Assembly: GCA_020634395.1 (NCBI GenBank)
Contig: JACKBU010000014.1
Coordinates: 16,118-80,117 of the forward strand
Reading direction: 5' to 3'
Source of the DNA: Ardenticatenaceae bacterium
Lineage (GTDB): Bacteria > Chloroflexota > Anaerolineae > Promineifilales > Promineifilaceae
Length of the DNA: 64,000 bases
How positions within the stretch are numbered: position 1 is the stretch's first letter; each line of letters begins with the position of its first letter. Position numbers and translations under genes: made by a program. Below the pieces are notes generated by a model that was not told the DNA's origin, searched no databases, and saw only the letters and a program-made list of their open reading frames with translations. Below are positions 11,958 through 39,953 of the stretch, piece by piece.

Positions 11958-12533
11958 CTACTGGCCCGCCAGCTGCTCCCGCAGTTCTTTTTCCTTTTCT
12001 GACGATAACGTAGAGGAGATTAAGGTCGGGTCATAAGCGCGCAGTTTTGCCAGCAAGGCATCCCGGTCATTGGCCTTGCCAAGTACCAAAAGAGCTGAAC
12101 TGTTGGGCTGCAAACGCTGTTTGATGGCTTCAATGCTCTTATCGCTAATGCCAAAGTCTCTTAACGAGGCTGTAATGCGGCCCAAGCCCGCGCCAATAGC
12201 AATGCCTGCTATCGGCCCGCCGATGAGGATGCCGGCCAACAAACCGATGCCCGCGCCTCGCCTGGTGTACTTGCCCTTGGGCGCATGCGTTTGCACCACG
12301 CGGATGCGATTCTCGTCGGCCACGCCGGCCGGGACAACCGCGCCGCCATCCCCAAACGAAGCGGAAGTGGGCGGCGCTACCAGGCCATCTTCCCCTTCGG
12401 CGCGTTCAAGGATGATGGCATCCTCTACTTCCACCAGACCGTCTTTCTCCATTTGCTCGATCTCTTTATAGACAGTCGAGGCTGTATCGAATCCCACAAA
12501 GGTTAATACAATAAAGTTATTACTGTCAGCCAT
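11958..12533 (-). CDS. DUF1269-like glycine-zipper membrane protein (copy 1)
   Basis: N-terminal IVLTFVGFDTASTVYKEIEQMEKDGLVEVEDAIILER, glycine zipper GAGIGLLAGILIGGPIAGIAIGAGLG, C-terminal FGISDKSIEAIKQRLQPNSSALLVL. Confidence 0.8.
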   Translation of the reverse strand: MADSNNFIVLTFVGFDTASTVYKEIEQMEKDGLVEVEDAIILERAEGEDGLVAPPTSASFGDGGAVVPAGVADENRIRVVQTHAPKGKYTRRGAGIGLLAGILIGGPIAGIAIGAGLGRITASLRDFGISDKSIEAIKQRLQPNSSALLVLGKANDRDALLAKLRAYDPTLISSTLSSEKEKELREQLAGQ

Positions 12534-12695
12534 GGCTTAATCTCCTTGGAACCCATCTGAGTAATTGACCCGAAAAAACACATTTCATTGACAATTGTCT
12601 TAACGAAAACGCCTGACTCATCGCCTTACATCTTGGATGCAGATAGGTTAACACAATGTCACAGAATGTCGATCCTTTTCCCGTTGACCCGGCCG

Positions 12696-13268
12696 TTACT
12701 CTGCTAACCGCGCCCGTAATTCAGCTTCAACCTCAGGGGTCAGGCTGGAAGAAACAACCTGCGGACTATAGGGACGAAGCTGCGCCAAAAACGCCTCCTG
12801 ATCAGCCGTGTGGCCCAGCACCAGCAGGCCAGAGCTGTCTGGCTGCAGACGCCGCCGGATGGCCGTAATGTTTTCGTCGCTGATGCCAAAATCTTTTAAT
12901 CGGGCCGAAACTGCCCCAATGCTGGCCCCTACTGCCAGCCCTAGCACCGGTCCACCCAGCAGCACGCCGGCCAGCAGCCCCAGGCCGCCTCCGCGCCGGG
13001 TATATTTGCCCTTTTTGCCATGCGTTTGCTTTACGCGGATCGAGTCCTCGATGGAGTGGGGCGCTTTGGCTGCCGTGCCGGCCTTGTCGGGAAAGGCCTG
13101 GGCTGGCGAAAGACTTTCCGGCGCGTCCGCGTCATCTCGCTCAAGGATGATGGCGTCTTGTATGGCAAGCAGCTGATCTTTTTCCATTTTTTCGAGTTGT
13201 TCGTAAACGGTCGCGGCCGTTCCCACTCCCTCAAACGTCAGGATAAGCAGCGTATTGTTCTCAGACAT
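12696..13268 (-). CDS. DUF1269-like glycine-zipper membrane protein (copy 2)
   Basis: Paralog of copy 1: LLILTFEGVGTAATVYEQLEKMEKDQLLAIQDAIILER ... GGGLGLLAGVLLGGPVLGLAVGASIG ... FGISDENITAIRRRLQPDSSGLLVL. Start at ATG 13268. Confidence 0.8.
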   Translation of the reverse strand: MSENNTLLILTFEGVGTAATVYEQLEKMEKDQLLAIQDAIILERDDADAPESLSPAQAFPDKAGTAAKAPHSIEDSIRVKQTHGKKGKYTRRGGGLGLLAGVLLGGPVLGLAVGASIGAVSARLKDFGISDENITAIRRRLQPDSSGLLVLGHTADQEAFLAQLRPYSPQVVSSSLTPEVEAELRARLAE

Positions 13269-13714
13269 TGTCACACCTTTTCTATGTAGTTGGCCGCTGG
13301 ACTGTTTTCCGGACGTGTCGGACAGCCAACAAAACGGCCGTTTCTGGGACCAGCGCCCAGGGTTACGATATTCGGCCACGGCAAATACATCAGTTGGAAA
13401 ACCCGATTGCTGTCTCCATTATACTTCTTTGGCCGCACTATTCCCTAGAAACTTGTCAAAACAATGTAAGCCAGCGGTAGAAGGACGTGTAGTACCAAAA
13501 AGGTGCACGAATGGGGGATTTCTCCATCGTTCATCTTCCTTGTAAGTTCTCTTCACACTCCTGAGAAATGGGTTACAACTTTCATACATCCTTTTGGTGC
13601 TACGCAGTCCTAACCCCATTATTCTATGATGATAACGGTTTCAGATTATCAAACCATTCAGGCTGCTTTCGCCCTTAACAGCGAGTATAAGCCAAAATCT
13701 AACAGGAGGAATGC

Positions 13715-16087
13715 ATGTCCAACCGGCCAGATAAACATTTACGGGCGCAATTACCCATCCCCGATGTGCCCAAACCAGGATTAACCACCTACGATGCCAA
13801 AGACCCGGATACCAAATATCCCCCCATCGAACCGCTGCGTCCCCCTGAAGGGGCACCCAACGTTCTAATTATCTTGCTGGACGATGTAGGCTTTGGCGCA
13901 TCCAGTGCCTTCGGCGGTCCGTGTAACACGCCCGCGTTTGAAAGGCTGGCAGCCGGCGGGCTGAAATACAATCGTTTTCATACGACTGCCCTGTGCGCCC
14001 CCACCCGCCAGGCCTTAATGACCGGCCGCAACCATCATTCGGTCGGTATGGGCAACATCACCGAAACCGCTACGGCCGCACCCGGTCAAAACTCGCTGCG
14101 TCCTAACACAAAAGCCCCCATCGCGCTGACTTTGAAACTGAACGGTTACTCTACCGCCATGTTTGGCAAGTGCCATGAAGTTCCCGTCTGGGAAAACAAT
14201 CCGATGGGGCCTTTCGAGCACTGGCCGGCTGGCGGCGGCGGCTTTGAATACTTCTATGGCTTCATCGGCGGCGAAAACAATCAGTGGGACCCTGCTCTTT
14301 TCGAGGGCCTGACCCCCGTCGAGCCGCCAGCCACTCCCGAAGAGGGATACCACCTGACCGAAGATCTGGCCGATCATGCTGTGAACTGGATTCGGCAGCA
14401 AAAAGCCCTGATGCCCGACAAACCATTCTTCGTCTACTTCTCTCCCGGTGCGACCCACGCTCCGCACCACGTGCCCAAGGAGTGGGCCGACAAGTACAAA
14501 GGGCAGTTTGGGCACGGTTGGGACAAACAACGCGAGATCACCTTTGCCCGACAAAAAGAACTGGGTGTCATCTCGCAAGACTGTGATCTGACTCCCCGTC
14601 ATGCCGAGATTCCTGCCTGGGATGATATGCCCGAAGAACTGAAGCCGGTGCTGGAACGTGAAATGGAGGTATATGCCGGGTTCCTGGAGCACACCGATTA
14701 CCACGTTGGCCGGGTGATTGATGTTCTGGAAGAGCTGGAAATTCTCGATGATACGCTCATCTTCTGCATCATCGGGGACAATGGCGCGTCCGCAGAGGGT
14801 ACGCTAAATGGCGCCTTCAACGAAATGGCTAATTTTAACGGCCTGGCTGCTCTAGAAACGCCCGAGTTCATGCTCTCTAAGATGGACGAGTTTGGCTCGC
14901 CGAGTTCGTATAACCATTATGCTGTGGGTTGGGCCTGGGCCATGGATGCACCGTATCAGTGGACCAAACAAGTCGCTTCTCATTGGGGTGGCACCCGCAA
15001 TGGCACCATCGTGCACTGGCCGAAAGGCATCCAGGAGAAAGGCGGGCTGCGTAATCAGTTCGGCCACGTTATTGACGTTGCCCCGACTATCCTGGAAGCA
15101 GCCGGTTTGCCGGAGCCGGTTTTTGTCAACGGGGTGCAGCAGTCGCCAATGGAAGGCACGAGCATGCTGTACAGCTTCAACGAGGCTGCCGCGCCTGAAC
15201 AACATGAAGTGCAATATTTTGAGATGTTTGGCAACCGCGGCATCTATTACAAGGGCTGGAGCGCCGTCACCAAACATCGCACCCCGTGGCTGATGGTGGG
15301 GCAGAAGATGGTGGCTTTTGATGACGATGTGTGGGAGTTGTACGATGGCAGCAAAGACTGGTCACAGGCCCGCGATCTGTCTAAAGAAATGCCCGATATG
15401 CTGCACAAGCTGCAGCGCCTCTGGTTGATCGAGGCTACCAAGTACAACGCTATTCCGCTGGATGACCGGCAAGTCGAGCGCATTATTCCAGAGTTGGCGG
15501 GCCGTCCTACCCTCATCCACGGTAATTCACAGTTGCTGTTTCCAGGGATGGGACGACTTTCAGAACTCAGTGTGCTCAACCTGAAGAACAAATCGTTCTC
15601 GGTTACAGCCGAGATTGAGGTGGGCAACAAACCGGCCCATGGCGTTATCGCTGCCCAGGGTGGCCGGTTTGGCGGCTGGAGTGTGTACGCCAAGAACGGC
15701 ACGCTCAAGTTTTCTTATAACGTGCTGGGCATTCATGAGTTCACTATTGAAGCGACGGAGCCGATTTCCCAGGGTAGACACCAGGTGCGGATGGAGTTTG
15801 CCTACGACGGTGGCGGATTAGGGAAAGGCGGCACTGTCACGTTGTATTATGACGGCCGTCTGGTGGGTAACGGCCGTGTGGACATGACCCAGGCCATGAT
15901 CTTCTCGGCAGACGAAACTTTGGACATTGGCTATGAAGCCGGCACGCCGGTTGCAACGGATTACACCACCCACGACAGCAAGTTCACCGGCAAAATTCAT
16001 TGGGTACAGCTTGACGCGGGTCAAGACGATCACGATCACTTTATTGATCCTGAAGAGCGCCTGCGTATTGCCATGGCGCGCCAGTAA
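13715..16087 (+). CDS. large arylsulfatase (Cys-type, formylglycine-dependent)
   Basis: LLDDVGFGASSAFGG and the sulfatase signature CAPTRQALMTGRNHH. GATHAPHH. 790 aa. GGAGG RBS. Confidence 0.9.
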   Translation: MSNRPDKHLRAQLPIPDVPKPGLTTYDAKDPDTKYPPIEPLRPPEGAPNVLIILLDDVGFGASSAFGGPCNTPAFERLAAGGLKYNRFHTTALCAPTRQALMTGRNHHSVGMGNITETATAAPGQNSLRPNTKAPIALTLKLNGYSTAMFGKCHEVPVWENNPMGPFEHWPAGGGGFEYFYGFIGGENNQWDPALFEGLTPVEPPATPEEGYHLTEDLADHAVNWIRQQKALMPDKPFFVYFSPGATHAPHHVPKEWADKYKGQFGHGWDKQREITFARQKELGVISQDCDLTPRHAEIPAWDDMPEELKPVLEREMEVYAGFLEHTDYHVGRVIDVLEELEILDDTLIFCIIGDNGASAEGTLNGAFNEMANFNGLAALETPEFMLSKMDEFGSPSSYNHYAVGWAWAMDAPYQWTKQVASHWGGTRNGTIVHWPKGIQEKGGLRNQFGHVIDVAPTILEAAGLPEPVFVNGVQQSPMEGTSMLYSFNEAAAPEQHEVQYFEMFGNRGIYYKGWSAVTKHRTPWLMVGQKMVAFDDDVWELYDGSKDWSQARDLSKEMPDMLHKLQRLWLIEATKYNAIPLDDRQVERIIPELAGRPTLIHGNSQLLFPGMGRLSELSVLNLKNKSFSVTAEIEVGNKPAHGVIAAQGGRFGGWSVYAKNGTLKFSYNVLGIHEFTIEATEPISQGRHQVRMEFAYDGGGLGKGGTVTLYYDGRLVGNGRVDMTQAMIFSADETLDIGYEAGTPVATDYTTHDSKFTGKIHWVQLDAGQDDHDHFIDPEERLRIAMARQ

Positions 16088-16097
16088 GGAGACCGAA

Positions 16098-19004
16098 ATG
16101 AGCAAAGAAAAGAATATTATCATCATAGCGGCTTATCAGGCGGTTGAACCAGCTGTGCAAAATTTTGAGGCACTGGTCCAACTCGTCAAAAAGAAGTCGG
16201 TAAAGGCTGATGGCATGATCCTGGTGCAAAAGGACCAGGACGGCCACATAACTGTGAGCGAAACAGGGGACCATCTAGGCCGTAAGGGCGTAGAGTGGGG
16301 CGGAGGCGTTGGCCTGCTCGTGGGTCTCGCCGCACCCCCGCTGCTTACTTCGGTGGCCGTAGGGGCCGCCGCCGGCGCCGTGGTGGGCAAGTTCGCCAAG
16401 CACAAGATCGTCGATAACCTGGAAGGTGGGCTGGGTGAAAATCTCAAGCCGGGGCAGGCCGCCATTTTGGCCATCGTCGCGGAAGGGGATCGCCTCGCGG
16501 CTGAACAGGCATTGGTTGACTCACCGGCCAAATCAGTGGCCGTGATGGATGAGGGCGGCGCTAAAGGTCTCAAGGCGGCTCTGAATGAGGCGCGGGGTAA
16601 ATTCAGTCCGGATCGCACCGTGCTGCCCATCCCTGACCGTAAGTTTGGCGGCGCGATTGCCCGTACGATGGAAGATGCAGTGCCCGATTACAGCTTTATC
16701 CCTGGCCCGCAGCCACCGGAAGGCGCACCCAATGTGCTGCTCGTTTTGATTGACGATGCTGGTTTTGGCGGTCCGGAAGCGTTTGGCGGTGAGATTCATA
16801 CACCAGCGTTGTCGCGGCTGCAAGAGATGGGACTGACGTACAATGCGTTTCACGTAACGGCCGTTTGCTCCCCCACTCGTGCTGCCATGCTAACCGGCCG
16901 CAACCATCACCGCGTGGGCATGGGCGGCATCGCTGAATTCCCCGGCCCCTTCCCCGGTTACACCGGCACGCGGCCACGCACCTGCACCGCGCTGCCCCGT
17001 ATTTTGAAAGAAAACGGCTACGTTACCGGCGGATTCGGTAAGTGGCACATGACCCCCGGTCACGAAATGGGACCGGCCGGGCCATTTGAGCATTGGCCGC
17101 AAGCCTGGGGCTTTGACCATTGGTGGGGCTTCCTCACCGGTGCGGCTGGCCAGTATGATCCGATCATCACGCAGGACAACTCCGTTCTCGGTGTGCCTGA
17201 AGGCAAAGACGGCGAGTTATACTACTTTCCCGATGACATTACCGATAAAAGCATCGAGTGGCTGCACAGCGTTCGTGCCCATAACGCCCACAAGCCCTGG
17301 TTCCTTTATTACTCCACCGGAGCGACCCACGCCCCGCATCATGTGGGTAAAGAGTGGGCGGACAAATACAAAGGTCAATTCGATGATGGCTGGGATGCCT
17401 ACCGCGAAAGAACCCTGGAACGCCAGAAGAAACTGGGCATTGTGCCAGCAGACACCGAACTGGCCCCTCGTCCCGATCCCTATCCCGCCTGGGACACCCT
17501 CACCGATGCGGAAAAGAAACTATACGCCCGCCAGATGGAAGTCTTCGCTGGCTTCTCAGAGAATGCCGACTGGAATATAAACCGGCTGATTGACGAAGTT
17601 GAAGCGATGGGTGAGTTAGAAAACACCCTCATCGTCTACATCTGGGGTGACAATGGCTCCAGCATGGAAGGCACCACCACCGGCTCCTTCAACGAAACCA
17701 CCTTTTTCAACGGCATTGTCCTCAATGCCGAAGAGCAGTTGGCGTTGATCGAGAAATGGGGCGGCATTGAAGAACTTGGCGGTGAGTACACCGCCCCGCA
17801 TTTTGCGGCGGCCTGGGCCCATGCCAACAACACCCCCTTCCAATGGGGCAAGCAGATGGCCAGCCATCTGGGTGGTACGCGCGATCCGATGGTCATTGCC
17901 TGGCCAAACCACATCAAACCCGACAGCAAAATCCGCAGCCAGTTTACGCACTGCATTGACGTGGCGCCCACCATTCTGGAAGCCATCGGCATTCCCGAAC
18001 CAAAGATGGTTGACGGCATCGAGCAAGAACCGATGGATGGCACCAGCTTTGCCTACACCTTTGAAGATGCAGAGGCAGAAGAACGTCATACGGTGCAATA
18101 CTTTGAGATGTACGGCAGCCGCGCCATCTACAAGGATGGCTGGTGGGCCTGTGCCCGGCTGGATAAGCTGCCCTGGGATTTCTCGCCGACGACGCTGGCG
18201 CGTTTCAAACCGGGCAGTGGTTACAATCCGGACGATGATCCCTGGGAACTCTACTACCTGCCCGACGATTTCAGCCAGGCCAAGAATCTGGCGGACGAGC
18301 AGCCGGAGAAACTGGCGGAACTGAAGGAACTGTTCTGGCAGGAGGCAGAGCGTAACCGGGCGCTGCCGTTGTTGGGCGGTCTCTCCGTGTTCTTTGGCAT
18401 CTTGCCGCCGATGGACACAACCACGCGCTTCAACTTTGCCGGTGACGTGCAGAATGTGTCTACGACGGTGATTCCGCGCATTTACGGCCGTTCCTACGCC
18501 ATCGAAGCAGAACTGGAAGTGCCGGAAGAAGGGGCTGAAGGTGTCTTGTGTGCCTTCGCCGACTTCATCGGCGGCTTCGCGCTGTGGGTTGATGAAAATG
18601 GCCACCTCGTTCACACCTACCAGTTCCTGGGCATCGACACCTACAAGCAAGTTTCCACCGAGCCAATCCCGACCGGCAATGTCACCGTGAAAATGCTGTT
18701 TGAGATTGATGAGCCAAAACCAGGGGCCGGCGGCAACGTCACCCTGTGGGCCAACGACAAGCAGATTGGCGAAGGCCGGATGCCCCATTCCGTGGCCATG
18801 TTGTTCACAACCTATGCCGGTATGGACATGGGTCGCGACAATGGCGGCGTTGTAGATCTGGATTATGAGGACAAAGCGCCCTACGCCTTTACCGGCAAGT
18901 TGAAGAATGTGGTCTTTGACCTGAAACCGGCGCACATGGAAGCGGAGAAAGCGCTGCATGAACATCGCGCCATCCACGAAGTGGCGGCAGGTGTGGCCGG
19001 TTAG
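16098..19004 (+). CDS. fusion protein: N-terminal DUF1269-like domain (copy 3) + Cys-type arylsulfatase
   Basis: ATG 16098 preceded by AAGGAG. N-terminus IIIIAAYQAVEPAVQNFEALVQLVKKKSVKADGMILVQKDQDGHITV plus zipper GGGVGLLVGLAAPPLLTSVAVGAAAGAVVG. Then LIDDAGFGGPEAFGG and CSPTRAAMLTGRNHH. Confidence 0.8.
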   Translation: MSKEKNIIIIAAYQAVEPAVQNFEALVQLVKKKSVKADGMILVQKDQDGHITVSETGDHLGRKGVEWGGGVGLLVGLAAPPLLTSVAVGAAAGAVVGKFAKHKIVDNLEGGLGENLKPGQAAILAIVAEGDRLAAEQALVDSPAKSVAVMDEGGAKGLKAALNEARGKFSPDRTVLPIPDRKFGGAIARTMEDAVPDYSFIPGPQPPEGAPNVLLVLIDDAGFGGPEAFGGEIHTPALSRLQEMGLTYNAFHVTAVCSPTRAAMLTGRNHHRVGMGGIAEFPGPFPGYTGTRPRTCTALPRILKENGYVTGGFGKWHMTPGHEMGPAGPFEHWPQAWGFDHWWGFLTGAAGQYDPIITQDNSVLGVPEGKDGELYYFPDDITDKSIEWLHSVRAHNAHKPWFLYYSTGATHAPHHVGKEWADKYKGQFDDGWDAYRERTLERQKKLGIVPADTELAPRPDPYPAWDTLTDAEKKLYARQMEVFAGFSENADWNINRLIDEVEAMGELENTLIVYIWGDNGSSMEGTTTGSFNETTFFNGIVLNAEEQLALIEKWGGIEELGGEYTAPHFAAAWAHANNTPFQWGKQMASHLGGTRDPMVIAWPNHIKPDSKIRSQFTHCIDVAPTILEAIGIPEPKMVDGIEQEPMDGTSFAYTFEDAEAEERHTVQYFEMYGSRAIYKDGWWACARLDKLPWDFSPTTLARFKPGSGYNPDDDPWELYYLPDDFSQAKNLADEQPEKLAELKELFWQEAERNRALPLLGGLSVFFGILPPMDTTTRFNFAGDVQNVSTTVIPRIYGRSYAIEAELEVPEEGAEGVLCAFADFIGGFALWVDENGHLVHTYQFLGIDTYKQVSTEPIPTGNVTVKMLFEIDEPKPGAGGNVTLWANDKQIGEGRMPHSVAMLFTTYAGMDMGRDNGGVVDLDYEDKAPYAFTGKLKNVVFDLKPAHMEAEKALHEHRAIHEVAAGVAG

Positions 19005-19111: not shown

Positions 19112-19684
19112 ATGACAACAGCAGTTTCGGCTTCGAGTTCGCCCACCGCAATGGCCACCAGAGCACGTCCCTGGTGGTTGCTGCTGATGCAAGGGATCGC
19201 CGCCGTCATCATTGGCGCGGTGCTGCTTTGGGCACCAGCCAAGACAAAGGTAGAGACCTGGCAGTTATTGGTGGCTCTGTTGGGTATTTATTGGGTCATT
19301 GCCGGGATTTTTGATCTGGTCCATATGTTCACTGACCATACCGGCTGGGGATGGAAGCTGTTCATGGGCCTCATCAGCATTATGGCCGGGGGCTATATTT
19401 TAATGTATCCGGTAGCGGCGGCCGTTGGTTTGCCACGCATTTTTGTACTGGTGTTGGGCATTTGGGGCCTGCTCCAGGGGATTGTGGCGCTGGTCCTGGC
19501 CTTCCGCGGCGGCGGTTGGGGTCTTGGCATTCTGGGTGTAGTGGGCATCGTCTTTGGCGGCTTCCTGATTGCGAACTACACGGCGCCTGGCGCGGGGTTA
19601 ACCTTCATCTGGGCGGCGGCCATTTGGGGGCTTATCGGCGGCGCCATCATGATTGTTCAGGCGTTCAGGCAGCGTTCAGCCTGA
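19112..19684 (+). CDS. HdeD/DUF308 family membrane protein
   Basis: GAAGGAG RBS. Six hydrophobic helices and WWLLLMQGIAAVIIGAVLLWAP, typical of DUF308. Confidence 0.7.
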   Translation: MTTAVSASSSPTAMATRARPWWLLLMQGIAAVIIGAVLLWAPAKTKVETWQLLVALLGIYWVIAGIFDLVHMFTDHTGWGWKLFMGLISIMAGGYILMYPVAAAVGLPRIFVLVLGIWGLLQGIVALVLAFRGGGWGLGILGVVGIVFGGFLIANYTAPGAGLTFIWAAAIWGLIGGAIMIVQAFRQRSA

Positions 19685-19694
19685 TCTAAGATTG

Positions 19695-23702: not shown

Positions 23703-23727
23703 CTTGACCAGTAACTTGAGAGCGGGA

Positions 23728-30459: not shown

Positions 30460-30558
30460 CGGCCGTCTAAACCACTATCCACATCGTTAGCAGGGACTTT
30501 ATTGAGGCGAAGACGGATTGAAACTTCTCCGCCTCGCCCCATACAAGGAGGATTAGCA

Positions 30559-30918: not shown

Positions 30919-31095
30919 TTTCCTGTGTGGTCGGGGTATAACTTGGTGCAGCGACAAGATTTTGATATTCTATGACGAGAGTCAAAAAATTGCGGCGTCC
31001 TGATGATCAAGTTTAGTCGTTGCTTGATCAAGCCATCTCCAATACCTTTGGGGTTTTCCTAATAGCTGCACAATTTGCGTAACCGGCGAGTCTCA

Positions 31096-32817
31096 ATGAA
31101 ATCTTTCGTACCTATTCTTAGCTGGCTTCCTGCTTATCAGGGCAAACTGCTGCGTGGCGACGTGATTGCCGCGTTAACCGTGTGGGCATTGTTAGTGCCA
31201 GAAGCAATGGCATACGCGGGCATTGCCGGGCTGCCGCCAGAAACCGGTTTGTATACAGCGCCGCTGGCGCTGATAGCCTATGCTATTTTTGGTACTTCGC
31301 GCCATCTGAGTGTTGGCCCAAGTTCCACCGTCGCAGCACTTTCTTTTACGGTAGTGGCTGGATTGGCCGTGATTGGTTCTGGCGAATTTTTGCTGTTATC
31401 GGTGACGCTGGCTCTGGTTACCGGGTTACTGCTCATCGCCGCCAGTTTTTTGCGGCTGGGTGTGATGGCGGATTTTTTGTCGCGGCCGGTGCTGGACGGG
31501 TTTGTAGTGGGGGTGGCTATTTCTATTGCCGTAGGGCAGTTGGATAAGATTTTGGGGTATGAACCCAAGTCTACTTATAGTTTTGTGCCGGAAGTGTTGT
31601 TGTTTATCCGTGACATCACCCTGATTCATTGGCCTACATTTTTAGTGGGGACGGTCAGCCTGGGTCTGTTGTTTGCGCTGCACAAATTTGTGCCCAAGAT
31701 TCCAGCCGCGTTGGTGGTGTTGTTCTTGTCCATTATTCTTTCCAGCCTGATGGATTTTGCGGCGATGGGAATTCATATTGTAGGGCAGATTCCGGCTTCG
31801 CTGCCGCCTTTTGGTTTGCCAGAAGGGTTGTCCTTGCAGGATATGCTGTCTGTTATGGTGGGAGCTGGTGGGGTCGCGTTGGTAGCGTTCGCGGAATCGG
31901 TAGCCATTGCCCGCTCGATAGCGACCCGATTTGGGTATGAAGTGCGGGCGGATCAGGAACTGCTGGCTGTGGGGGCGGCTAATTTGGGGGCGGGTTTTTG
32001 TGGCGGATTTGTGGTGGATGGCAGTATGTCCAAAACGGCCGCGTCGGTGGAGTCCGGGGCGCAGTCGCAAATGGTTTCCATCATCGCGGCGGTGGCTATT
32101 TTGATTACGGCCGTTGCCCTGACCCCGCTCTTTTACAGCCTGCCAGAGGCTACGTTGGGGGCCATCGTCATCCATGCCGTCTGGCACTCCATCAACCTGC
32201 GAAAAGTAGGGCAATATCGCGGCATTACAACGCTTGACTACGCAACGGCCGTTGTGGCTTTGGGAGGCGTGCTGCTGTTGGGCTTGCTGCAAGGTTTGCT
32301 GCTGGCAACCTTTCTGGCGCTGGTCGTGTTGTTGTTTGGCACCAAACGGCGCAATACGGCCGTGTTGGGGAAGGTGCCGGGCACGACCGTTTTCCGCAGC
32401 ATCGAAAACTATCCGGATGGGGAAACCTTTCCGGGACTCGTCATTCTACGCTTTGATGGGGCCTTGTTCTTTGCCAACGCCCCGGATTTTATTTCTGCGG
32501 CCCGACAGGCTTTAACGACGGCCCAATCACCGCCAAAAGTTGTCTTGATAGATGGGGAAAGCATGAACGGCATTGACGCCACCGCCGCCATCATGTTGAT
32601 GGAGTTTCAAGAAGAACTGACGCGAACAGGCATTGAACTGCGCCTGTGCCGCATGAAAACGGAGATTATGAAGATCATTCAGCGCACAGAATTGTATGCC
32701 ACCATCCCCCCGGAGCACTATTATCTGACGGTGGAAGAAGCAGTTAAGGCATATCTGACCGATACACAACAGAGCAGCAATGGCCGTGTTAAGGAACCCG
32801 CTTCGACTAAAATATGA
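31096..32817 (+). CDS. SulP family sulfate permease with STAS domain
   Basis: ILSWLPAYQGKLLRGDVIAALTVWALLVPEAMAYAGIAGLPPETGLY is a canonical SulP N-terminus. STAS tail VILRFDGALFFANA. Confidence 0.9.
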   Translation: MKSFVPILSWLPAYQGKLLRGDVIAALTVWALLVPEAMAYAGIAGLPPETGLYTAPLALIAYAIFGTSRHLSVGPSSTVAALSFTVVAGLAVIGSGEFLLLSVTLALVTGLLLIAASFLRLGVMADFLSRPVLDGFVVGVAISIAVGQLDKILGYEPKSTYSFVPEVLLFIRDITLIHWPTFLVGTVSLGLLFALHKFVPKIPAALVVLFLSIILSSLMDFAAMGIHIVGQIPASLPPFGLPEGLSLQDMLSVMVGAGGVALVAFAESVAIARSIATRFGYEVRADQELLAVGAANLGAGFCGGFVVDGSMSKTAASVESGAQSQMVSIIAAVAILITAVALTPLFYSLPEATLGAIVIHAVWHSINLRKVGQYRGITTLDYATAVVALGGVLLLGLLQGLLLATFLALVVLLFGTKRRNTAVLGKVPGTTVFRSIENYPDGETFPGLVILRFDGALFFANAPDFISAARQALTTAQSPPKVVLIDGESMNGIDATAAIMLMEFQEELTRTGIELRLCRMKTEIMKIIQRTELYATIPPEHYYLTVEEAVKAYLTDTQQSSNGRVKEPASTKI

Positions 32818-34495
32818 TCGCCAGAACCTCGCCTCTGATTTAACGGCAGGTGTCGCTTCCGCCTTTGTCACCATACCCGATGGTCTGGCTTCGGCAATAC
32901 TGGCCGGCGTCAATCCCATGCAGGGGTTGTATGCCTTGATGGTTGGCACGCCCATTGCCGCTTTTACGCTTAGTTCGCAGTTTATGTACGTGGGTAACAC
33001 AGGCGCTATGGCTGTGGCTACCGGGGATGCCCTGGCCGATGTTTCTGGTGTGGATGTGCTGCAGGCGCTGGCCATACTAACCCTGATGGTGGGCGTTATC
33101 CAGTTTCTTTTGGGCATTCTGCGGCTGGGCGGCATCACCAAATTTGTGTCTAACGCCGTCATGGTTGGATTTATGACTGGCATAGCCCTGCTGATTATTT
33201 TGGGCCAGCTCAAAACGTTTACCGGGTACACCAGCCCTTATAACAACGATGTGCTGGCAGGATTGGACACGCTGCTTCATTTTAACCAGTGGGATTTGGG
33301 AACTTTTTTTGTTGGCGCCCTGACCATTGCCTTAATTGTCGGATTGGGTAAAACGCGGCTGAAAGACTTTAACATGATTCTGGCTATTTTGGCGGCTTCG
33401 GTGGTAACGGCCGTTTTTAGCCTCAGCTCTGTGGAAACCATTGGCGACATCGCCGATATCCCGCGCGGTTTTCCTTCCTTAACCCTGCCCGATTTCTCAT
33501 TAATTCCACTGCTGCTCCCGTCGGCCTTGGCCTTAGCCCTCATTGGGCTGGTACAGGCTGTGGGGGTTAGTAAAACGGTACCCAACTCCGACGGCAACTT
33601 TCCCGACGCTTCGCGCGATTTTGCCGGCCAGGGCCTGGCCAACATTGGCAGCGGCCTCGTGGGTGGGCTGCCCATTGGCGGCACCATGTCTGAAACCTCT
33701 GTGAGCATGAGCGCCGGCGCGAAAACGCGCTTTGCCAACATCTTTTCGGGCATTCTCATTATCACCGTGGTGCTGCTGTTTGGAAATCTTGTAGAGCGCA
33801 TCGCCATGCCGGCCGTGGCGGCGCTGCTCATGGTGGCCGGCTATGAAGCCATCAAGATTAGTGAAATTGAAGATGTCCGGGATATCGGCATTGGGCCGCG
33901 GGCCATCATGCTGGTGACTTTTATGGCGACCATGATCTGGCCACTGCAGTATGCGGTCCTCGTGGGCGTTATCTTATCTGTGCTGCAATATTTAGGACAG
34001 TCGGCGGCTGATGTGCGGCTGGGCGCGCTGGTTCCGCAACCCGATGGCTATGTGTTGGAAACGGATCCTCCAGAAGTACTGGAATCGTACAGCGTGATTT
34101 TGCTGCGAGTATATGGCAGTGTTTTTTATGCGGCAGCTTCCAGACTGGAGGAACTACTACCGGCGCCCCAGCAAGCGGTAGGAGCGGTGGTTATTTTAAA
34201 TTTGCGCGGGGCGGATCGGGTAGGCAGCACCTTCATCAAGGTGCTTGAGCGGTATGCTCTCAAGCTTAGAGTGCACGGCAGCAAATTGATGCTGACCGGT
34301 GTTCATAAACGCGTTCTGGAGCAGATTGAAAAGACAGAAACGACGGAGTCGATTGCCCGTGATGATATTTTCCTGGCGGATGAACGACTCATGTTTGCTA
34401 CCTGGCAGGCATGGTCGGCGGCTCAGGCGTGGGTCGCGGCCCAACGAGGAGCGGTGGCGAAGCCAGAAGAAGCAGATGTGAACGTGCAGCAGTAA
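32780..34495 (+). CDS. SulP family anion permease with STAS domain (overlaps upstream gene by 38 nt)
   Basis: LTAGVASAFVTIPDGLASAILAGVNPMQGLY. STAS-like ILLRVYGSVFYAAA. Confidence 0.85.
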   Translation: MAVLRNPLRLKYDRQNLASDLTAGVASAFVTIPDGLASAILAGVNPMQGLYALMVGTPIAAFTLSSQFMYVGNTGAMAVATGDALADVSGVDVLQALAILTLMVGVIQFLLGILRLGGITKFVSNAVMVGFMTGIALLIILGQLKTFTGYTSPYNNDVLAGLDTLLHFNQWDLGTFFVGALTIALIVGLGKTRLKDFNMILAILAASVVTAVFSLSSVETIGDIADIPRGFPSLTLPDFSLIPLLLPSALALALIGLVQAVGVSKTVPNSDGNFPDASRDFAGQGLANIGSGLVGGLPIGGTMSETSVSMSAGAKTRFANIFSGILIITVVLLFGNLVERIAMPAVAALLMVAGYEAIKISEIEDVRDIGIGPRAIMLVTFMATMIWPLQYAVLVGVILSVLQYLGQSAADVRLGALVPQPDGYVLETDPPEVLESYSVILLRVYGSVFYAAASRLEELLPAPQQAVGAVVILNLRGADRVGSTFIKVLERYALKLRVHGSKLMLTGVHKRVLEQIEKTETTESIARDDIFLADERLMFATWQAWSAAQAWVAAQRGAVAKPEEADVNVQQ

Positions 34496-34597: not shown

Positions 34598-35152
34598 ATG
34601 TTAAGAAGACGAGCGGGAGAACCAGGTCCGGGACCAGCGCGCGGTCCGGTCCGGGGTGGCGGGGCAACCCGCTACCAGATGCGGCAGCGTATGTTTGCCA
34701 TTGGCGATGATTTCTTTATTGAAGATCAAAACGGCCGTCGCGTTTTCAAAGTCGATGGTAAAGCCTTACGAGTCCGTTCTACGCTGCTGTTTGAGGACGC
34801 AAACGGCCGTGAACTGTACAAAATCCAGGAAAAGATGGTGCGCGTGCGCGATACCATGGACATTGAAGATGCCAATGGGCGGGTAGCCGCTAAGGTCCAC
34901 AACGCCCTAATCACCCCGCTGCGTGACCGCTGGCAAATCGACATCCCTGGCGGCGCAGACCTGACTACCCAGGGCAACATCGTCAATCATGAATACCGCA
35001 TTGAGCAGGGCCGCCAGACGGTAGCCACAATCTCTAAGAACTGGTTCCGGGTGCGCGATACCTACGGGGTAGAAGTGGCGCCCGGCCAGGATGATGCCCT
35101 GCTGCTGGCTATCACGGTGTGCATTGACATGATGGCCCATTCGGGCCGGTAA
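34598..35152 (+). CDS. LURP-one-related / tubby-C-like (DUF567) protein
   Basis: AAGGAGAG RBS. Repeated beta-hairpin pattern FAIGDDFFIEDQNGRRVFKVDGK...LFEDANGRELYKIQEK...IEDANGRVAAKV. Confidence 0.7.
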   Translation: MLRRRAGEPGPGPARGPVRGGGATRYQMRQRMFAIGDDFFIEDQNGRRVFKVDGKALRVRSTLLFEDANGRELYKIQEKMVRVRDTMDIEDANGRVAAKVHNALITPLRDRWQIDIPGGADLTTQGNIVNHEYRIEQGRQTVATISKNWFRVRDTYGVEVAPGQDDALLLAITVCIDMMAHSGR

Positions 35153-35231: not shown

Positions 35232-36113
35232 ATGAGTGGTCCAATTCAAATGGTCATGATCAAGTTTGATACGACGGAAAAGTTCCAGGGCGAAATTATG
35301 CGGGAATTGAATGAGCTGCGGGGCAAAGGGCTGATTCGCCTGCTTGATGTGATGATGGTGGCGAAAAAGCCCAATGGCCAGATACAGCGCATGGAGATGA
35401 CCGACCTGAGCGATGCCCAAATGCATAAGTTTGGCGTGGTGTTGGGGAAGTTGATGGGTATGGATGGCGACACGGCCGTTTCCGAATCCCCTCTGGTCGC
35501 TGCCGGCACCCAGTTTGGCCTGACGGCTGATGATCTGGCCAGTTTGCCTGACCAACTGGAACCTAATACGGCAGCCGCTTTGTTACTATTTGAACATACC
35601 TGGGCGGCCGGTTTTCGGGCAGCCGTCGCCCGGGCCGGCGGACATATGACCGCCCAGGGTTTCCTGACGCCGCAGCTCCTCACGACAGTGGGTAGAGAAG
35701 TTAAGGCAATTCAGGAGGCAGAGGCAACCCTTGAACTGACGGAGGCGATCAAAGGCGCGGCAATGCTGGATGCTTTGATTACCCTGGCGGAAGTGGAGGC
35801 TATTGAGGAAGCGGCCGTTGAAGAGGCCGCCGTCGTTGTCGCTCTGGCGGAAGAGGTAGAAGCGCAAGCCGTGGCCGAGGTCATAGAGGTGTCCGAAAGA
35901 GCGGAATTCGTTAAATCGGCTATTGCGGCTGACGTTCTGCGCACTTTGGTTGTAGCTGGTATGATTGAAGACGCGGCTGTAAACGAAGCGTTGGAAGTTT
36001 TGGCAGCCGCCGAGTTGATTGAGGAAGCGGCGATGCTGGAAGCGGCGACGGCCGTGGCCACCATGGAAGCCGAAGTTGCCGAAGCGAAAGAAGCGTTGGC
36101 GGCAAATCCCTAG
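35232..36113 (+). CDS. soluble DUF1269-related protein (copy 6) with Glu/Ala/Val-rich repetitive C-terminal tail
   Basis: N-terminus MVMIKFDTTEKFQGEIMRELNELRGKGLIRLLDVMMVAKKPNGQ is paralogous to 29704. The last ~120 aa are AEVEAIEEAAVEEAAVVVALAEEVEAQAVAEVIEV... Confidence 0.65.
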   Translation: MSGPIQMVMIKFDTTEKFQGEIMRELNELRGKGLIRLLDVMMVAKKPNGQIQRMEMTDLSDAQMHKFGVVLGKLMGMDGDTAVSESPLVAAGTQFGLTADDLASLPDQLEPNTAAALLLFEHTWAAGFRAAVARAGGHMTAQGFLTPQLLTTVGREVKAIQEAEATLELTEAIKGAAMLDALITLAEVEAIEEAAVEEAAVVVALAEEVEAQAVAEVIEVSERAEFVKSAIAADVLRTLVVAGMIEDAAVNEALEVLAAAELIEEAAMLEAATAVATMEAEVAEAKEALAANP

Positions 36114-36131
36114 ACAGTAGGAGGAATCGAT

Positions 36132-36644
36132 ATGAGCCAGAATTTGATCGTAATCGCTTTTGATACAGAAGATAAGGCGGAAGAAGTCCTGGAGACGATG
36201 AGAAGCAGCGAAAAGCACGGCTTTCTCAATTTAGAAGATTCGGTAGTCGTCAAGAAGGATGCCGATGGCAAAGTACATTCCAAAAACGCCATGGACAAGA
36301 CCACGAAAGAAGGAATAGTGGCCGGTGGTCTTCTTGGAATGTTTTTGACAGCCTTTTTCTTCGGGCCGGTTGGCTGGCTGGGTGCAGCTTTGATCGGCGG
36401 CGCCGCAGGCGGTGGCATCGGGGCATTGATGAAGAAAGGCGTAGAGCGGGACTTCATCAAGGATGTCAGTGAAACGATTCAGCCTGGAACCTCGGCGCTG
36501 TTCCTGGTCGTCCGCTCGGCGAATGCTGACGTGGCCGTGGCGGCTTTACGCCAGTACGAAGGCAAAATTCTTCAGTCTACCCTCCCGGAAGATGCTGAAG
36601 AAACGTTGGAACGCGCATTACGTCCTAAGAACCCTTCCGCCTAA
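36132..36644 (+). CDS. DUF1269 glycine-zipper membrane protein (copy 7, canonical)
   Basis: AGGAGG RBS. LIVIAFDTEDKAEEVLETMRSSEKHGFLNLEDSVVVKKDADGKVH...GGLLGMFLTAFFFGPVGWLGAALIGGAAGGGIG...IQPGTSALFLVV. Confidence 0.85.
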   Translation: MSQNLIVIAFDTEDKAEEVLETMRSSEKHGFLNLEDSVVVKKDADGKVHSKNAMDKTTKEGIVAGGLLGMFLTAFFFGPVGWLGAALIGGAAGGGIGALMKKGVERDFIKDVSETIQPGTSALFLVVRSANADVAVAALRQYEGKILQSTLPEDAEETLERALRPKNPSA

Positions 36645-36764: not shown

Positions 36765-38117
36765 TTATACTGCGGGTCGACCGTGACAGTTTTTAAACTT
36801 TTTGCCACTGCCACAGGGGCAGGGATCGTTTCGGCCGACCTTTACGGCCGTTGGCGGCTCCACGTCTGGTTGGTAAAGCTGCATAATTTCATCGGCGTAA
36901 CGTCCCTGCCGCAGTAAACCGGCCATCATTTTCATGGGTCGATCGACGTGGTTGAAAAACAGCTTGTAACCAGGGCACAAATAGTTTAATCCATCCTCAC
37001 CATCTGGCGTGCGGATAAAGCGGTTGCGGGGACAGCCGCCGTTGCAGGCAAACCGCACGGTACATTCCTGGCAGTAACGAGGCAGCGTTTGCTGTTTGTC
37101 CAGACCAAACTGGCGCTGCTTAGCTGAGTTCACCAGATCGAGCATATGAGTCTCGTGGATGTTGCCGAGCAGATAATCGGGTTCGACGTAATGGTCGCAG
37201 GCGTATAAATCGCCGTTGTGTTCCAGGGCTAGGGCATTGCCGCAGGTGGGGGCAAAGATGCACAGACTGTACTGCCCTACGTGGGCACCCAGGGTCGCAT
37301 CAAAGAGTTGCACAAAAACCTGGCCTACGTCGCGCTGGATCCATTCGTCGAAGATGGCGCAGAGAAAACGGCCGTACTGCTCTCCATCTACCGAACGTTC
37401 TGTTACCAGATGGCCGGCCTGCGTGTATAACGGCCGTTGCCCGCCCGGTCGTTCGCTCCAACCAATATTGGCCAGCGGCAAGAATTGGGCCGTTGCCCGC
37501 TCTACAATCGGGATGAACTGGATGTACTGCGCCCCTAACTCGTCACGAAAGAAGCGGTAGATCTCTAGGGGGCGATTTTGGTTGGCGGCGTGTACGGTGC
37601 ACAGGATATTAAAATCCACATTGTGCTTGGCCAGCAGTCGCCAGCCCTGCATAACCTGGTCAAAGCTGCCTGCGCCCCCTTTGTTGACTCGATAGGTATC
37701 ATGGATTTCGCGCGGGCCATCGACGCTGAGGCCGATAAGGAAGTTGTGCTCTTTGAAAAAGGCGCACCATTCGTCGTCCAGTTTGGTGCCGTTGGTCTGC
37801 ATGGTGTGCAGCAGACGCTGGCCTGGCTTTTTGTACTTTTCCGCCAGTTCTACCGAACGTTTGAAGAAGTCTAACCCCATGAGCGTGGGTTCCCCGCCTT
37901 GCCAGGCAACGATAACTTCGGCGGTACGGCCGTGTGCCTCCAGAAGCTGCCGAATATAGGTTTCCAGCAAGCTGTCTTCCATGCGGAAGCGGCTGCCGGG
38001 ATATAACGACTCCTTCGACAAGAAGAAACAGTATTTACAATCCAGATTGCAGACCGCTCCGGTTGGTTTTGCCAGCAAATGAAATGCCGAAGATACGGCC
38101 GTAGACATTGTTGCCAT
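36765..38117 (-). CDS. anaerobic sulfatase-maturating enzyme (radical SAM/SPASM) with C-terminal SEC-C motif
   Basis: [21 protein letters not shown] (Cx3Cx2C). SPASM cysteines [19 protein letters not shown]. Tail [17 protein letters not shown]. Confidence 0.9.
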
Positions 38118-38142
38118 CAGTTATTTCTCCCAGTTCTGTATC

Positions 38143-38934
38143 TTACAACATTTGCTCCAATTCCGTGATCTTTTCTACCAGTTCGACTTCGGCTGCTTGC
38201 ATTTGCTCCAGCAAGGATTTCAGTTCACCGAGCTTTGCCCGTGGATCAGTAGGCTCGTACTCGTTCTCCTTTTTTTTCGGTGCGCCCAAAAAGAAGTTAG
38301 AAAGAAAGCTGGCCAGAACACCGATCAGCGCTACGCCGGACAACATGACGAAAACTGCCAAAACACGCCCCCACGGCGACACCGGAAAACGATCTCCATA
38401 GCCGACTGTGGTCATGGTTACAAAGGTCCACCAGACCGCATCGCCGGAGGTGGTGATATTGGCGTTCGGGTAGGAAGCTTCGACCTTCAGCATGAAAACA
38501 CCGACAATTTCGGCTATGACGATAATGCCGAAGATGGTGATAAAGAGGGCAATGCCTGCCCGGTTGTTGACAATCTCGTTCACCATATTCTGCACACCGA
38601 AAATTCGCAGCAGCCGTGCTGCACGGAAGATGCGAAAGACGCGGAAGATACGCAGCTGCGGTAGACAGGCCAACAAATCGGCCCACCCCCAATTTCTGAA
38701 GAAGTAGTTGGATTTAGAAGAAGCCGTCAGCAGGCGGTACGTAAAATCGAACAAGAAAAACACTGTCAAAATAGCATTGATAATTTCCAGGACACCCATT
38801 GTCAGGGGAGAAATCGAGTAGAAGTAATCAATCCATATGAGGATCAGGTTGAAAACAGACACCAACGAGAGCAATAAAATGAACAACTCATACCCGGTAC
38901 TCTTCAATTCTTTTTCTTGCTGGTTTTCAGTCAT
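38143..38934 (-). CDS. voltage-gated-type K+ channel (6-TM, TVGYGD filter)
   Basis: S4-like RIFRVFRIFRAARLLRIF, pore WWTFVTMTTVGYGD, C-terminal coiled coil. Confidence 0.85.
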   Translation of the reverse strand: MTENQQEKELKSTGYELFILLLSLVSVFNLILIWIDYFYSISPLTMGVLEIINAILTVFFLFDFTYRLLTASSKSNYFFRNWGWADLLACLPQLRIFRVFRIFRAARLLRIFGVQNMVNEIVNNRAGIALFITIFGIIVIAEIVGVFMLKVEASYPNANITTSGDAVWWTFVTMTTVGYGDRFPVSPWGRVLAVFVMLSGVALIGVLASFLSNFFLGAPKKKENEYEPTDPRAKLGELKSLLEQMQAAEVELVEKITELEQML

Positions 38935-39455
38935 GATTTGCCTTTCCTTCTTGTTTGCTTCACTATTTCCGTTTTGTGTTGGGTATTATACGGCCGTGTA
39001 GAAGGTCAGCCGCTTTGCATATCTCCCACTTTTTTGTCGTACCGTTTCAGCACGGTATTTAACGAAGAGAGTGAGAGACACAGTCTACAAATCTAAAGTA
39101 GTATAGACGATTTGACCAGATAGGAACTCCTCCAAAAAGGTTCACAAATGGGTTATATCGCTGAAGACCAGCGATTCCTTGCTGGAGCGAGTAGGTCCAG
39201 CTTACCGGTTCATTCCCTTCCTGCAAAACGGACTGCCACAATGGGCGAACACTTCTTGCAAGTGTAGGAATACTAAAGATAAACTATGGAAACGAATACA
39301 ACTTTCATACACCATTTTGGAGCTACAAGCTTTTGGCCTAAATCCATTATCCTTAAGATGAAGCTTCTCATGAAGAGAGGCTGAGCTGTTAAGAACGGAA
39401 GTTGTACTCAAACGAATAGACCCGTATTCAGTCAATCGAAAAAAGGAGAGTCGAA

Positions 39456-39953
39456 ATGAGTGATTTAATTGTATTGGCCTTTGATGATGAGGCGAGCGCC
39501 TTTGAGATGCGCGACAAACTGCTGCAAATGCAAAAGCAAGAGCTGATTACCCTGGCGGACGCCGCCATCGTGGTGCGCGACAAAAAGGGTAAGCCGAAGG
39601 TAAAACAGCTGCACAGCCTGGTGGGTGCCGGTGCTTTGGGCGGAGCCTTTTGGGGTATGCTGATTGGCTTGCTCTTCTTTGCTCCCTGGCTGGGCATGGC
39701 AGCCGGAGCGCTCGGCGGTGCACTTGGCGGCAAATTTACCGACGTTGGGGTTGATGACAAGTTTATCAAAGAAGTGGGGGCGACTATTCAACCGGGACAG
39801 GCGGCGCTGTTCCTCCTGGTGGTTAAGGCTACAGGCGACAAAGTGCTGCCCGAACTCTCTTCCTTTAGCGCCAAAGTGATTCAGACCTCGCTCACGAATG
39901 AGCAGGAGGCCAAACTGCGCGAAGCTTTCGCTGCGGATGAAATCGAAGCATAA
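39456..39953 (+). CDS. DUF1269 glycine-zipper membrane protein (copy 8, canonical)
   Basis: AAGGAGAG RBS. LIVLAFDDEASAFEMRDKLLQMQKQELITLADAAIVVRDKKGKPKV...GAGALGGAFWGMLIGLLFFAPWLGMAAGALGGALGG...IQPGQAALFLLV. Confidence 0.85.
   Translation: MSDLIVLAFDDEASAFEMRDKLLQMQKQELITLADAAIVVRDKKGKPKVKQLHSLVGAGALGGAFWGMLIGLLFFAPWLGMAAGALGGALGGKFTDVGVDDKFIKEVGATIQPGQAALFLLVVKATGDKVLPELSSFSAKVIQTSLTNEQEAKLREAFAADEIEA

Follow-up and report, generated by a model that had tools for sequence, protein, structure and literature searches.

A DUF1269-superfamily gene island in a Chloroflexota genome and a possible role of the family as a membrane tether

An island of about 43 kb, of which the DUF1269 superfamily may be regarded as the hallmark, was found in the genome of an Ardenticatenaceae bacterium (Chloroflexota). 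We studied it in a window of 64,000 nucleotides, i.e. the whole stretch of DNA that was analysed (GenBank assembly GCA_020634395.1, contig JACKBU010000014.1, positions 16,118 to 80,117 of the forward strand; coordinates below are those of the window). Exactly nine open reading frames (ORFs) across the whole window were matched by our own hidden Markov model (HMM) of DUF1269; two of them are fused to enzymes and two lack the glycine zipper of the other members. The family is large (one query returned more than 5,000 cluster representatives), and the island as a whole appears to consist of membrane and ion-handling proteins. Considering the architectures, the conservation of the enzyme fusions and the recurrent gene neighbourhoods, we give an even chance to the view that DUF1269 acts as a module for membrane tethering and assembly, and as such as a general rather than a sulfate-specific partner of other proteins.

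Results

Nine divergent members of one superfamily

In a Pfam search of the window ORFs, seven genes or domains scored above the gathering cutoff of PF06897 (DUF1269; 26.9 bits), with values ranging from 38.9 to 129.4 bits. On the minus strand these are two adjacent paralogues at 11958..12533 (85.5 bits; with an insert of ~27 amino acids between strands 2 and 3) and 12696..13271 (81.1 bits; likely ATG at 13271, the ORF reaching 13379). The plus strand carries the N-terminal domain of a sulfatase at 16098..19004 (38.9 bits, followed by PF00884 with 232.7 bits), a copy with a half-degenerate zipper at 29024..29509 (45.5 bits; the ORF opens at 28970), a further paralogue at 36132..36644 (81.5 bits), the canonical and most conserved type at 39456..39953 (129.4 bits), and the C-terminal domain of a YegS/DAGK-type lipid kinase at 52271..53692 (39.8 bits, preceded by DAGK_cat and YegS_C). 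The last of these is the ninth copy that a first-pass annotation of the window had described as fused to a lipid kinase, correctly so.

The two remaining members, both on the plus strand, are zipper-less homologues. The gene at 29704..30132 belongs to DUF6325 (PF19850, 42.8 bits) and stays below the PF06897 cutoff, while 35232..36113, which matched no Pfam family, combines a DUF1269/DUF6325-like N-terminal domain (E 1.2e-16 with the DUF1269 profile) with an Ala/Glu-rich tail. A profile of these two proteins and 11 relatives aligned to the DUF1269 profile over the full length (hhalign probability 99.8 %, E 2.1e-30; 133 aligned columns), with a single gap exactly at the zipper. Similarly, the DUF1269 HMM used for the window search was built without the two fused and the two zipper-less copies and recovered all four (E 5e-22 to 1e-16). 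The assignment of all copies to one family, made earlier from the letters alone, is borne out by these results, as is the description of 29704 and 35232 as zipper-less variants, for which the zipper statistics and the position of the alignment gap agree. The tail of 35232..36113 comprises ~130 Ala/Glu/Val-rich residues of repetitive appearance (EEAAVEEAAVVVALAEEVEAQAVAE...) and is likewise without a Pfam match.

Pairwise identity among the nine copies is 15-52 %, the maximum being that of the neighbours 11958 and 12696, and well-conserved orthologues of each copy type exist elsewhere. Because identity is this low, the nine copies are, judged by their sequences, old and maintained paralogues and not the outcome of a recent tandem burst. 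The 39456 type shares 55-65 % identity with archaeal (Halobacteria) and cyanobacterial orthologues; a protein identical to it is present in an Anaerolineales metagenome-assembled genome (MAG), and among named organisms the scan gave Ca. Leptovillus affinis as the nearest relative.

A glycine-zipper hairpin within a single domain

In six copies the glycine zipper spans 36 residues, of which 25-33 % are Gly, and contains 3-7 GxxxG motifs. The central zipper noted in the first-pass annotation is therefore present in these six, and only by half in 29024..29509, which keeps the first zipper helix and has the second replaced by a Pro/Cys-rich loop (WLDPAKADCAPPKTPNCGL). This gene directly precedes the zipper-less DUF6325 gene, and it may represent an intermediate between the membrane and the soluble forms.

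The AlphaFold2 model of the 39456 protein (predicted local distance difference test, pLDDT, 69; predicted template modelling score 0.65) has the order b1-a1-b2-b3, a hairpin at residues 63-97, and a2-b4-a3-b5-a4; that of the DUF6325 protein 29704 (pLDDT 80) is arranged identically except that the hairpin is missing. Both models accordingly show a beta-alpha-beta-beta N-terminal module and an alpha-beta-alpha-beta-alpha C-terminal module. In 62 orthologues the hairpin is the most conserved segment (0.82 vs 0.71 and 0.73). No signal peptide was found in any DUF1269 copy or in the sulfatases. The sole hydrophobic segment of the fused sulfatase is the glycine zipper itself (residues 69-100), and a Kyte-Doolittle scan revealed none in the free sulfatase. 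Since signal peptides are absent and both halves of the protein must join into one domain, the simplest topology would be a cytoplasmic domain with a membrane-inserted hairpin.

Foldseek searches of the PDB with the 39456 and 29704 models gave no match at E <= 0.001, only weak ones to CutA1, NDK and ACT-type domains (best CutA1 match: E 0.057, TM 0.54 normalised to the target), and sequence-profile searches of PDB sequences found nothing. For DUF1269 in the ccyA neighbourhood of Microcystis, a long hairpin with a glycine zipper, set within a soluble ferredoxin-type domain, has been predicted, and Foldseek related the protein to CutA1 and NikR (bioRxiv 10.1101/2024.07.07.602159). Because our structural matches are weak and the sequence profiles empty, we take this published resemblance as a lead and not as membership, and an assignment to CutA1/PII was not made.

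Enzyme fusions and the sulfate-ester genes

The fusion at 16098..19004 is a protein of 968 amino acids, annotated as arylsulfatase in public records. Its DUF1269-plus-sulfatase architecture is kept in all 120 of its best relatives (74-91 % identity, 950-974 amino acids), which come from Chloroflexota, Actinomycetota and Acidimicrobiales. AtsB of M. tuberculosis (~970 amino acids) may also be a member of this fused family. Immediately upstream of the fusion gene, at 13715..16087 on the plus strand, lies a free sulfatase (PF00884, 216 bits; Laminin_G_3) with a ConA-like C-terminal domain. Both enzymes carry the C-x-P-x-R motif of Cys-type sulfatases, as CAPTR in the free and CSPTR in the fused form, and both score far below the cutoffs of the NCBIfam equivalogs (arylsulfatase, choline sulfatase, PehA). 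The maturase anSME (radical SAM/SPASM) is encoded on the minus strand at 36765..38117 (TIGR03942, 483 bits vs a cutoff of 349.45) and ends in a SEC-C zinc-binding motif. This combination of anSME and SEC-C was also seen with the fused sulfatase in other phyla (loci L092, 3210-4541; L094, 12889-14175; L185, 5083-6342).

Four SulP permeases, each with a C-terminal STAS domain, are encoded on the plus strand: a member of a divergent subfamily at 21990..23702 (PF00916, 210.8 bits; TIGR00815, 220.8 bits at a cutoff of 380), its tandem paralogue at 23704..25413 (197.8 bits; start uncertain, the ORF opening at 23593), a canonical member at 31075..32817 (287.6 bits), and a fourth at 32780..34495 (229.1 bits). 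Only 31075 passes TIGR00815 (385.9 bits, cutoff 380.45), and none of the four reaches the equivalog cutoffs of DauA and BicA. The two sulfatases, the maturase and the four permeases listed in the first-pass annotation are thus all present. No sulfate-assimilation genes occur among the annotated genes of the window.

The sulfate genes recur together with the fusion in four other loci. In L092 (Actinomycetota) the fusion is surrounded by SulP, anSME with SEC-C, AI-2E, DUF6325, a MalT-like regulator and SHOCT/PLDc_N; in L094 by a MalT-like regulator, DUF6325 and anSME; in L093 by DUF1269, an ion channel, META, SulP, AI-2E and CLC; and in L185 by anSME, LOR, DUF308, PLDc_N, a second sulfatase, two SulP and AI-2E. 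The neighbours are SHOCT, CLC, CNNM and MFS in L090 and L091, and LOR and a free sulfatase, followed by unrelated genes, in L184. The MalT-like regulator therefore accompanies the fusion in L092 and L094.

The fusion of lipid kinase and DUF1269 is conserved as well, and both domain orders occur among public proteins (P0361 and P0370 in one order; P0377, P0395, P0451 and P0492 in the opposite one); the fusion thus seems to have arisen independently at least twice.

Gene neighbourhoods in other genomes

We collected 80 genomic loci that contain DUF1269 of the 39456 type, flanked on either side by at most 10 kb (total length 1.14 Mb), and searched them with the window proteins; the neighbours were also clustered independently of the window and named by Pfam. 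ORFs were called greedily by length, by which antisense ORFs were sometimes chosen. The null of the distance test was the sequence available per distance bin, and its P values treat genes as independent.

Extra DUF1269 genes, 39 in all, were present in 24 of the 80 loci; 28 of them are no more than 2.5 kb away from the central copy. DUF308 occurred in 13-15 loci and SHOCT in 12-13, the figures varying with the way of counting, followed by AI-2E (12), DUF6325-like genes (10), SulP (10), ABC1 kinases (9) and sulfatases (6); near DUF1269, AI-2E, ABC1 kinases, MFS and MscS reach roughly the frequency of SulP. Enrichment within 2.5 kb was found for paralogues, DUF308 (P 1e-4), SHOCT (4e-4) and DUF6325-like genes (7e-3), and DUF389 also belongs to these tightest neighbours (P between 1e-4 and 7e-3). 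Within 5 kb, SulP (P 0.02; 10 of 11 genes), AI-2E (0.005) and Holin_4_2 (0.01) were enriched. The control families, i.e. ABC ATPases, PAS kinases and Ser/Thr kinases, were flat with distance.

Among the 19 loci from outside Chloroflexota, SulP was found in two (one Haloferax, one Methanotrichaceae) and a sulfatase in none. Eight plasmid loci from alpha-proteobacteria, cyanobacteria and haloarchaea contained neither. Their DUF1269 genes adjoin HdeD, AI-2E with an Mrp antiporter, copper/metal ATPase clusters with Usp, DabAB with carbonic anhydrase, an RND pump, or a bile-acid:Na symporter. HdeD/DUF308 and AI-2E are neighbours of DUF1269 in alpha-proteobacterial plasmids too. A Halorussus plasmid (L098, 2661-8498) has DUF1269 beside carbonic anhydrase and a DabAB-type inorganic-carbon pump, and in plasmids of Nostoc (L097) and Leptolyngbya (L100) the gene is located inside a conserved copper/heavy-metal cluster of P-type ATPase, DUF305, DUF2933, ICMT, DUF5676 and Usp. 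In L010, a locus of one related MAG, short tandem repeats (~6160-6260) with units of the GGAATAC/GGAACAC type precede the DUF1269 gene.

Zipper-less and zipper-bearing copies stand side by side twice in the window (29024 with 29704; 35232 with 36132, separated by 18 bp), and the same pairing was found in L062 and L070. Taken together, the link between DUF1269 and SulP is lineage-limited and weaker than those to paralogues, DUF308/HdeD, SHOCT and DUF6325. The co-localisation with sulfate genes suggested in the first-pass annotation holds for SulP, where it is significant and appears in both directions of the search (see below), and for sulfatases near the 39456-type DUF1269 it is confined to Chloroflexota (6 of the 80 loci).

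Layout and origin of the island

The island extends from ~11.9 to 54.6 kb; the genes that bound it encode CoaBC and SmpB at one end and, at the opposite end, a class I aminoacyl-tRNA synthetase. The genes from 13715 to 36644 are all on the plus strand with short gaps, those for anSME and an ion channel lie beyond them on the minus strand, and the genes from 39456 to 54566 are likewise all on the plus strand.

In addition to the genes described above, the plus strand encodes two DUF308/HdeD-like membrane proteins (19112..19684 and 25462..26076; PF03729, 39.4 and 31.4 bits), a DHA2-type MFS transporter (20300..21949; MFS_1, 129 bits; TIGR00711, 172 bits, below its cutoff), a MalT-like STAND regulator (26188..28866; AAA_16, TPR_MalT and GerE helix-turn-helix (HTH)) that misses the MalT equivalog (NF003420, 375.8 bits vs a cutoff of 537), a SHOCT-domain protein (30148..30459; PF09851, 37 bits), a small membrane protein outside all Pfam families that recurs in 8 of the 80 related loci (30502..30858), and a LURP-one-related (LOR) protein (34598..35152; PF04525, 65.1 bits). 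The DUF308, SHOCT, LOR and MalT-like genes had all been recognised in the first-pass annotation and match the respective Pfam domains. It had also listed several K+ channels in this span, of which a single ion channel was found (38143..38934, minus strand; Ion_trans/Ion_trans_2).

Further downstream, again on the plus strand, Pfam identified a fusion of Phage_holin_4_2 with a phosphodiesterase-like protein of the alkaline-phosphatase superfamily (43555..45615), a fusion of Phage_holin_4_2 with an ABC1/UbiB kinase (45695..47851), and an AI-2E family transporter with an SPFH/Band 7 protein (48582..51139); a YegS/DAGK-type lipid kinase without DUF1269 follows (51370..52245). Phage_holin_4_2 forms the N-terminal four-helix membrane module of both fusions; L001 and L002 carry the same genes, and relatives lie near DUF1269 in 11 of the 80 loci, including those of Thermosynechococcus, Haloferax and Methanotrichaceae. 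Outside the island, at 61980-63979 on the minus strand, a gene for a BMC-domain shell protein adjoins one for an RnfC/Nuo51-like iron-sulfur flavoprotein, suggesting the beginning of a bacterial microcompartment locus at this end of the window.

The window contains 103 copies of an 8-bp palindrome, ACGGCCGT, compared with 1.3 expected from shuffled sequences (maximum 6). It is found inside and between genes (e.g. at 766, 13334, 39981 and 63536), often as AAACGGCCGTTT, and resembles the HIP1 type of highly iterated palindrome of cyanobacteria; a text search for it returned unrelated primers only. In one clade of related Chloroflexota loci (L001-L015, L021, L022, L028, L030, L032, L038, L039, L041 and L043) it is equally dense, at about one per kb, and in the others at chance level. 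Its density in the island is about equal to that in the flanks, and a tRNA search found no tRNA genes in the window; the island is therefore native and not a recent import, and the housekeeping genes that bound it are a further point for this origin. GC content is 0.48-0.58 inside and 0.54-0.66 outside the island. The possibility of a recently acquired genomic island was rejected on account of the unchanged host palindrome density, the lack of tRNA genes and the lack of an integrase among the annotated window ORFs. An anti-phage defence island was likewise discarded, as the only PADLOC match lies in the HTH region of the regulator and nine other island proteins had none.

Neither a riboswitch nor any other RNA was revealed by Rfam searches, at the gathering threshold or at E <= 0.1. 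When k-mers were scanned in 18 intergenic regions of the island, only the genome-wide palindrome emerged and no shared regulatory motif, and the region upstream of 39456, compared with that of five relatives, is conserved only at the ribosome-binding site.

Discussion

DUF1269 as a putative tether and assembly module

We propose that DUF1269 is one alpha/beta domain (b-a-b-b ... a-b-a-b-a) split by a glycine-zipper hairpin that would dip into the membrane; as the hairpin interrupts a single domain, both halves, and anything fused to them, would then lie on the cytoplasmic face. DUF1269 would thus be a tether and a unit of oligomerisation; where it is fused to an enzyme, i.e. the formylglycine sulfatase or the YegS-type lipid kinase, it would keep that enzyme on the inner membrane face. 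The stand-alone copies, paired with zipper-less paralogues of the DUF6325 type, might serve as accessory or scaffold subunits for neighbouring transporters, and the proteins so accompanied would include SulP, AI-2E, MFS, channels and other small membrane proteins, DUF308 and SHOCT among them. Within the island, the free and the tethered sulfatase, anSME and the SulP anion permeases would form a sulfate-ester unit, probably under the MalT-like regulator. Sulfate would be released in the cytoplasm at the membrane, and the anion would be moved by SulP, whose direction of transport, like oligomerisation and any ligand of DUF1269, we can only infer. The idea of a tether gains support from Phage_holin_4_2, another membrane module of the island that is also fused to enzymes (phosphodiesterase-like, ABC1 kinase).

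Several points weigh against this proposal. The hairpin is modelled with low confidence (pLDDT <50 at residues 77-93 of 39456), and the charges flanking it are mixed, being net positive before and net acidic after it, for which reason the suggested topology rests mainly on the two arguments given above. ORFs in the neighbour loci were called crudely, and the neighbour counts derive mostly from related Chloroflexota MAGs, uncorrected for shared ancestry. Nor was any common promoter motif or riboswitch found that would unite the island in a single regulon. DUF1269 occurs in widely differing contexts (metal resistance, DabAB, RND pumps), which would also fit a function of its own and not that of a partner-dependent tether. 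Finally, the papers found on DUF1269 offer only fold predictions for its members.

Competing explanations

The first-pass annotation had suggested that DUF1269 is a functional partner, for example a membrane sensor, gate or chaperone, in a sulfur-acquisition or envelope-stress system. Taken as a family dedicated to SulP/STAS permeases and sulfatases in sulfur acquisition, it would be a first alternative. Part of the evidence does point this way, namely the conserved sulfatase fusion, the presence of SulP within 10 kb of this fusion in the window, L092, L093 and L185, the position of DUF1269 immediately upstream of a same-strand SulP in L014, L113 and L137, and the significant proximity of the two families. 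Moreover, when the search was reversed and started from 80 metagenome contigs that encode SulP of the 31075 type, 12 of them had a DUF1269-superfamily gene, nine of these being among the 34 closest contigs (L104-L137, 52-73 % identity). The remaining 46 contigs (37-66 % identity, several partial) contributed only three, with weak scores, and SulP itself accompanies DUF1269 in a small part of the forward loci, rarely outside Chloroflexota and never on the plasmids. The associations with DUF308, SHOCT and paralogues are stronger, the lipid-kinase fusions have no link to sulfate, and the window lacks assimilation genes. We therefore consider a dedicated sulfur partner unlikely, and what stands of this claim is the conserved fusion and the proximity to SulP.

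A second alternative is that oligomers of DUF1269 are small channels or pores, in which a conducting bundle of zippers would be gated by the cytoplasmic alpha/beta domain, alone or together with the zipper-less paralogues, when a ligand or ion is sensed. Glycine zippers are reportedly typical of channel-forming helices, no part of the protein is more conserved than the hairpin, which has as many as seven GxxxG within 36 residues, the identity between Chloroflexota and Halobacteria is very high (55-65 %), and proteins that handle ions or pH dominate among the neighbours (K channel, CLC, Na/H exchangers, MscS, AI-2E, P-type ATPases, DabAB). However, the two helices of the hairpin are short (~15-20 residues) and poorly modelled, searches of the PDB gave no structural match to any channel, and 29024 is still conserved despite the loss of half its hairpin. 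A pore would also leave unexplained why DUF1269 is fused to a 780-aa sulfatase or to lipid kinases, and we judge this alternative decidedly doubtful.

Alternatively, the island could be a unit for remodelling membrane lipids, with DUF1269 and Phage_holin_4_2 as anchors of head-group enzymes and sulfatases that act on sulfated lipids. It does combine four fusions of an enzyme with an anchor (sulfatase, phosphodiesterase-like protein, YegS kinase, ABC1/UbiB kinase) with LOR, which has a scramblase-like fold, SPFH/Band 7 and two lipid kinases, and related loci contribute PLDc_N, LPG_synthase_TM and a patatin-like phospholipase. This support is thematic only; the window has no lipid-synthesis or sulfotransferase genes, and four SulP, the MFS transporter and the channel would have no place in such a unit, which makes it very improbable. 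A chance or neutral expansion by local duplication, devoid of any functional tie to the neighbours, could account for the adjacent and 52 % identical pair 11958/12696 and is otherwise hardly credible, given the 15-43 % identity of the remaining pairs, the highly conserved orthologues of each type, the same partner families in other phyla, and the significant proximity to the central gene next to flat control families; the view of the first-pass annotation that these are not mere random paralogues is upheld on the same grounds.

Comparison with known systems

The DUF1269 of the Microcystis ccyA neighbourhood belongs to the same family as the window copies and has the same zipper-in-domain anatomy, and there two adjacent copies are found by calcium/carbonate genes (bioRxiv 10.1101/2024.07.07.602159). 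The window differs in its nine members, its zipper-less DUF6325-type copies, its two enzyme fusions and its context of sulfatases and SulP. CutA1 and PII-like trimers include transporter regulators, as in GlnK-AmtB and SbtB-SbtA. With these DUF1269 shares a small domain of b-a-b type and genes that adjoin transporters, the structural match to CutA1 being weak; unlike them, it has a membrane hairpin inserted in the domain, and no significant match in structure or sequence connects the two. A bolder idea, which we hold to be a long shot, is that the DUF1269 superfamily provides membrane-embedded regulatory or gating subunits in Bacteria and Archaea, whose ligand-sensing domain would form hetero-oligomers with DUF6325 and control SulP or other transporters in a PII-like manner, or else conduct ions.

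The sulfatases of the island resemble other anSME-matured sulfatases in PF00884, the CxPxR motif and the presence of an anSME equivalog nearby. The majority of characterised bacterial sulfatases are exported enzymes, whereas those of the island have no signal peptide, one carries an N-terminal DUF1269 as a putative tether that would place it on the cytoplasmic face, and the anSME bears a SEC-C tail. A PF00884-fold catalytic domain behind an N-terminal membrane anchor is also known from LtaS, EptA/MCR-1 and OpgB, in which multi-helix anchors are combined with extracytoplasmic catalysis and a Thr/Ser nucleophile, without a maturase; the fusion of the island differs by a two-helix zipper inside a soluble domain, the Cys-to-formylglycine motif and the anSME. 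As in the ats/ssu regulons of Pseudomonas, sulfatases are clustered with sulfate-family transporters and a regulator. In contrast to these regulons, the island is devoid of ABC-type sulfate/sulfonate transporters, a CysB/Cbl-type regulator and assimilation genes, and has instead four SulP and many small membrane proteins. Similarities also exist to HdeD/DUF308 stress clusters, since, its own paralogues aside, DUF1269 has its most specific neighbour in DUF308/HdeD, in taxa that range from Chloroflexota to Sinorhizobium and Sphingobium, but neither hdeAB chaperones nor gad genes, as in HdeD acid-resistance clusters, are present.

The gene families of the island and the prediction of a glycine zipper in a ferredoxin-type fold for DUF1269 (bioRxiv 10.1101/2024.07.07.602159) were already known. 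As far as we searched the literature, no description was found of operonic DUF1269-DUF6325 pairs, of the module of fusion, anSME, SulP and MalT-like regulator across phyla, of lipid-kinase fusions in two orders, or of the ranked set of neighbours.

Conclusions

DUF1269 is a large family without an assigned function, for which the window and its relatives open up concrete tests. These can start from the two conserved types of enzyme fusion, from DUF6325 as a zipper-less sister that pairs with DUF1269, and from a reproducible set of neighbours comprising DUF308/HdeD, SHOCT, SulP and AI-2E. The sulfatase system common to Chloroflexota and Actinomycetota is predicted to be located at the cytoplasmic face of the membrane, which would be unusual for bacterial sulfatases. 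If the idea of DUF1269 as a tether or regulator is true, it would provide a role for several linked DUF families at once.

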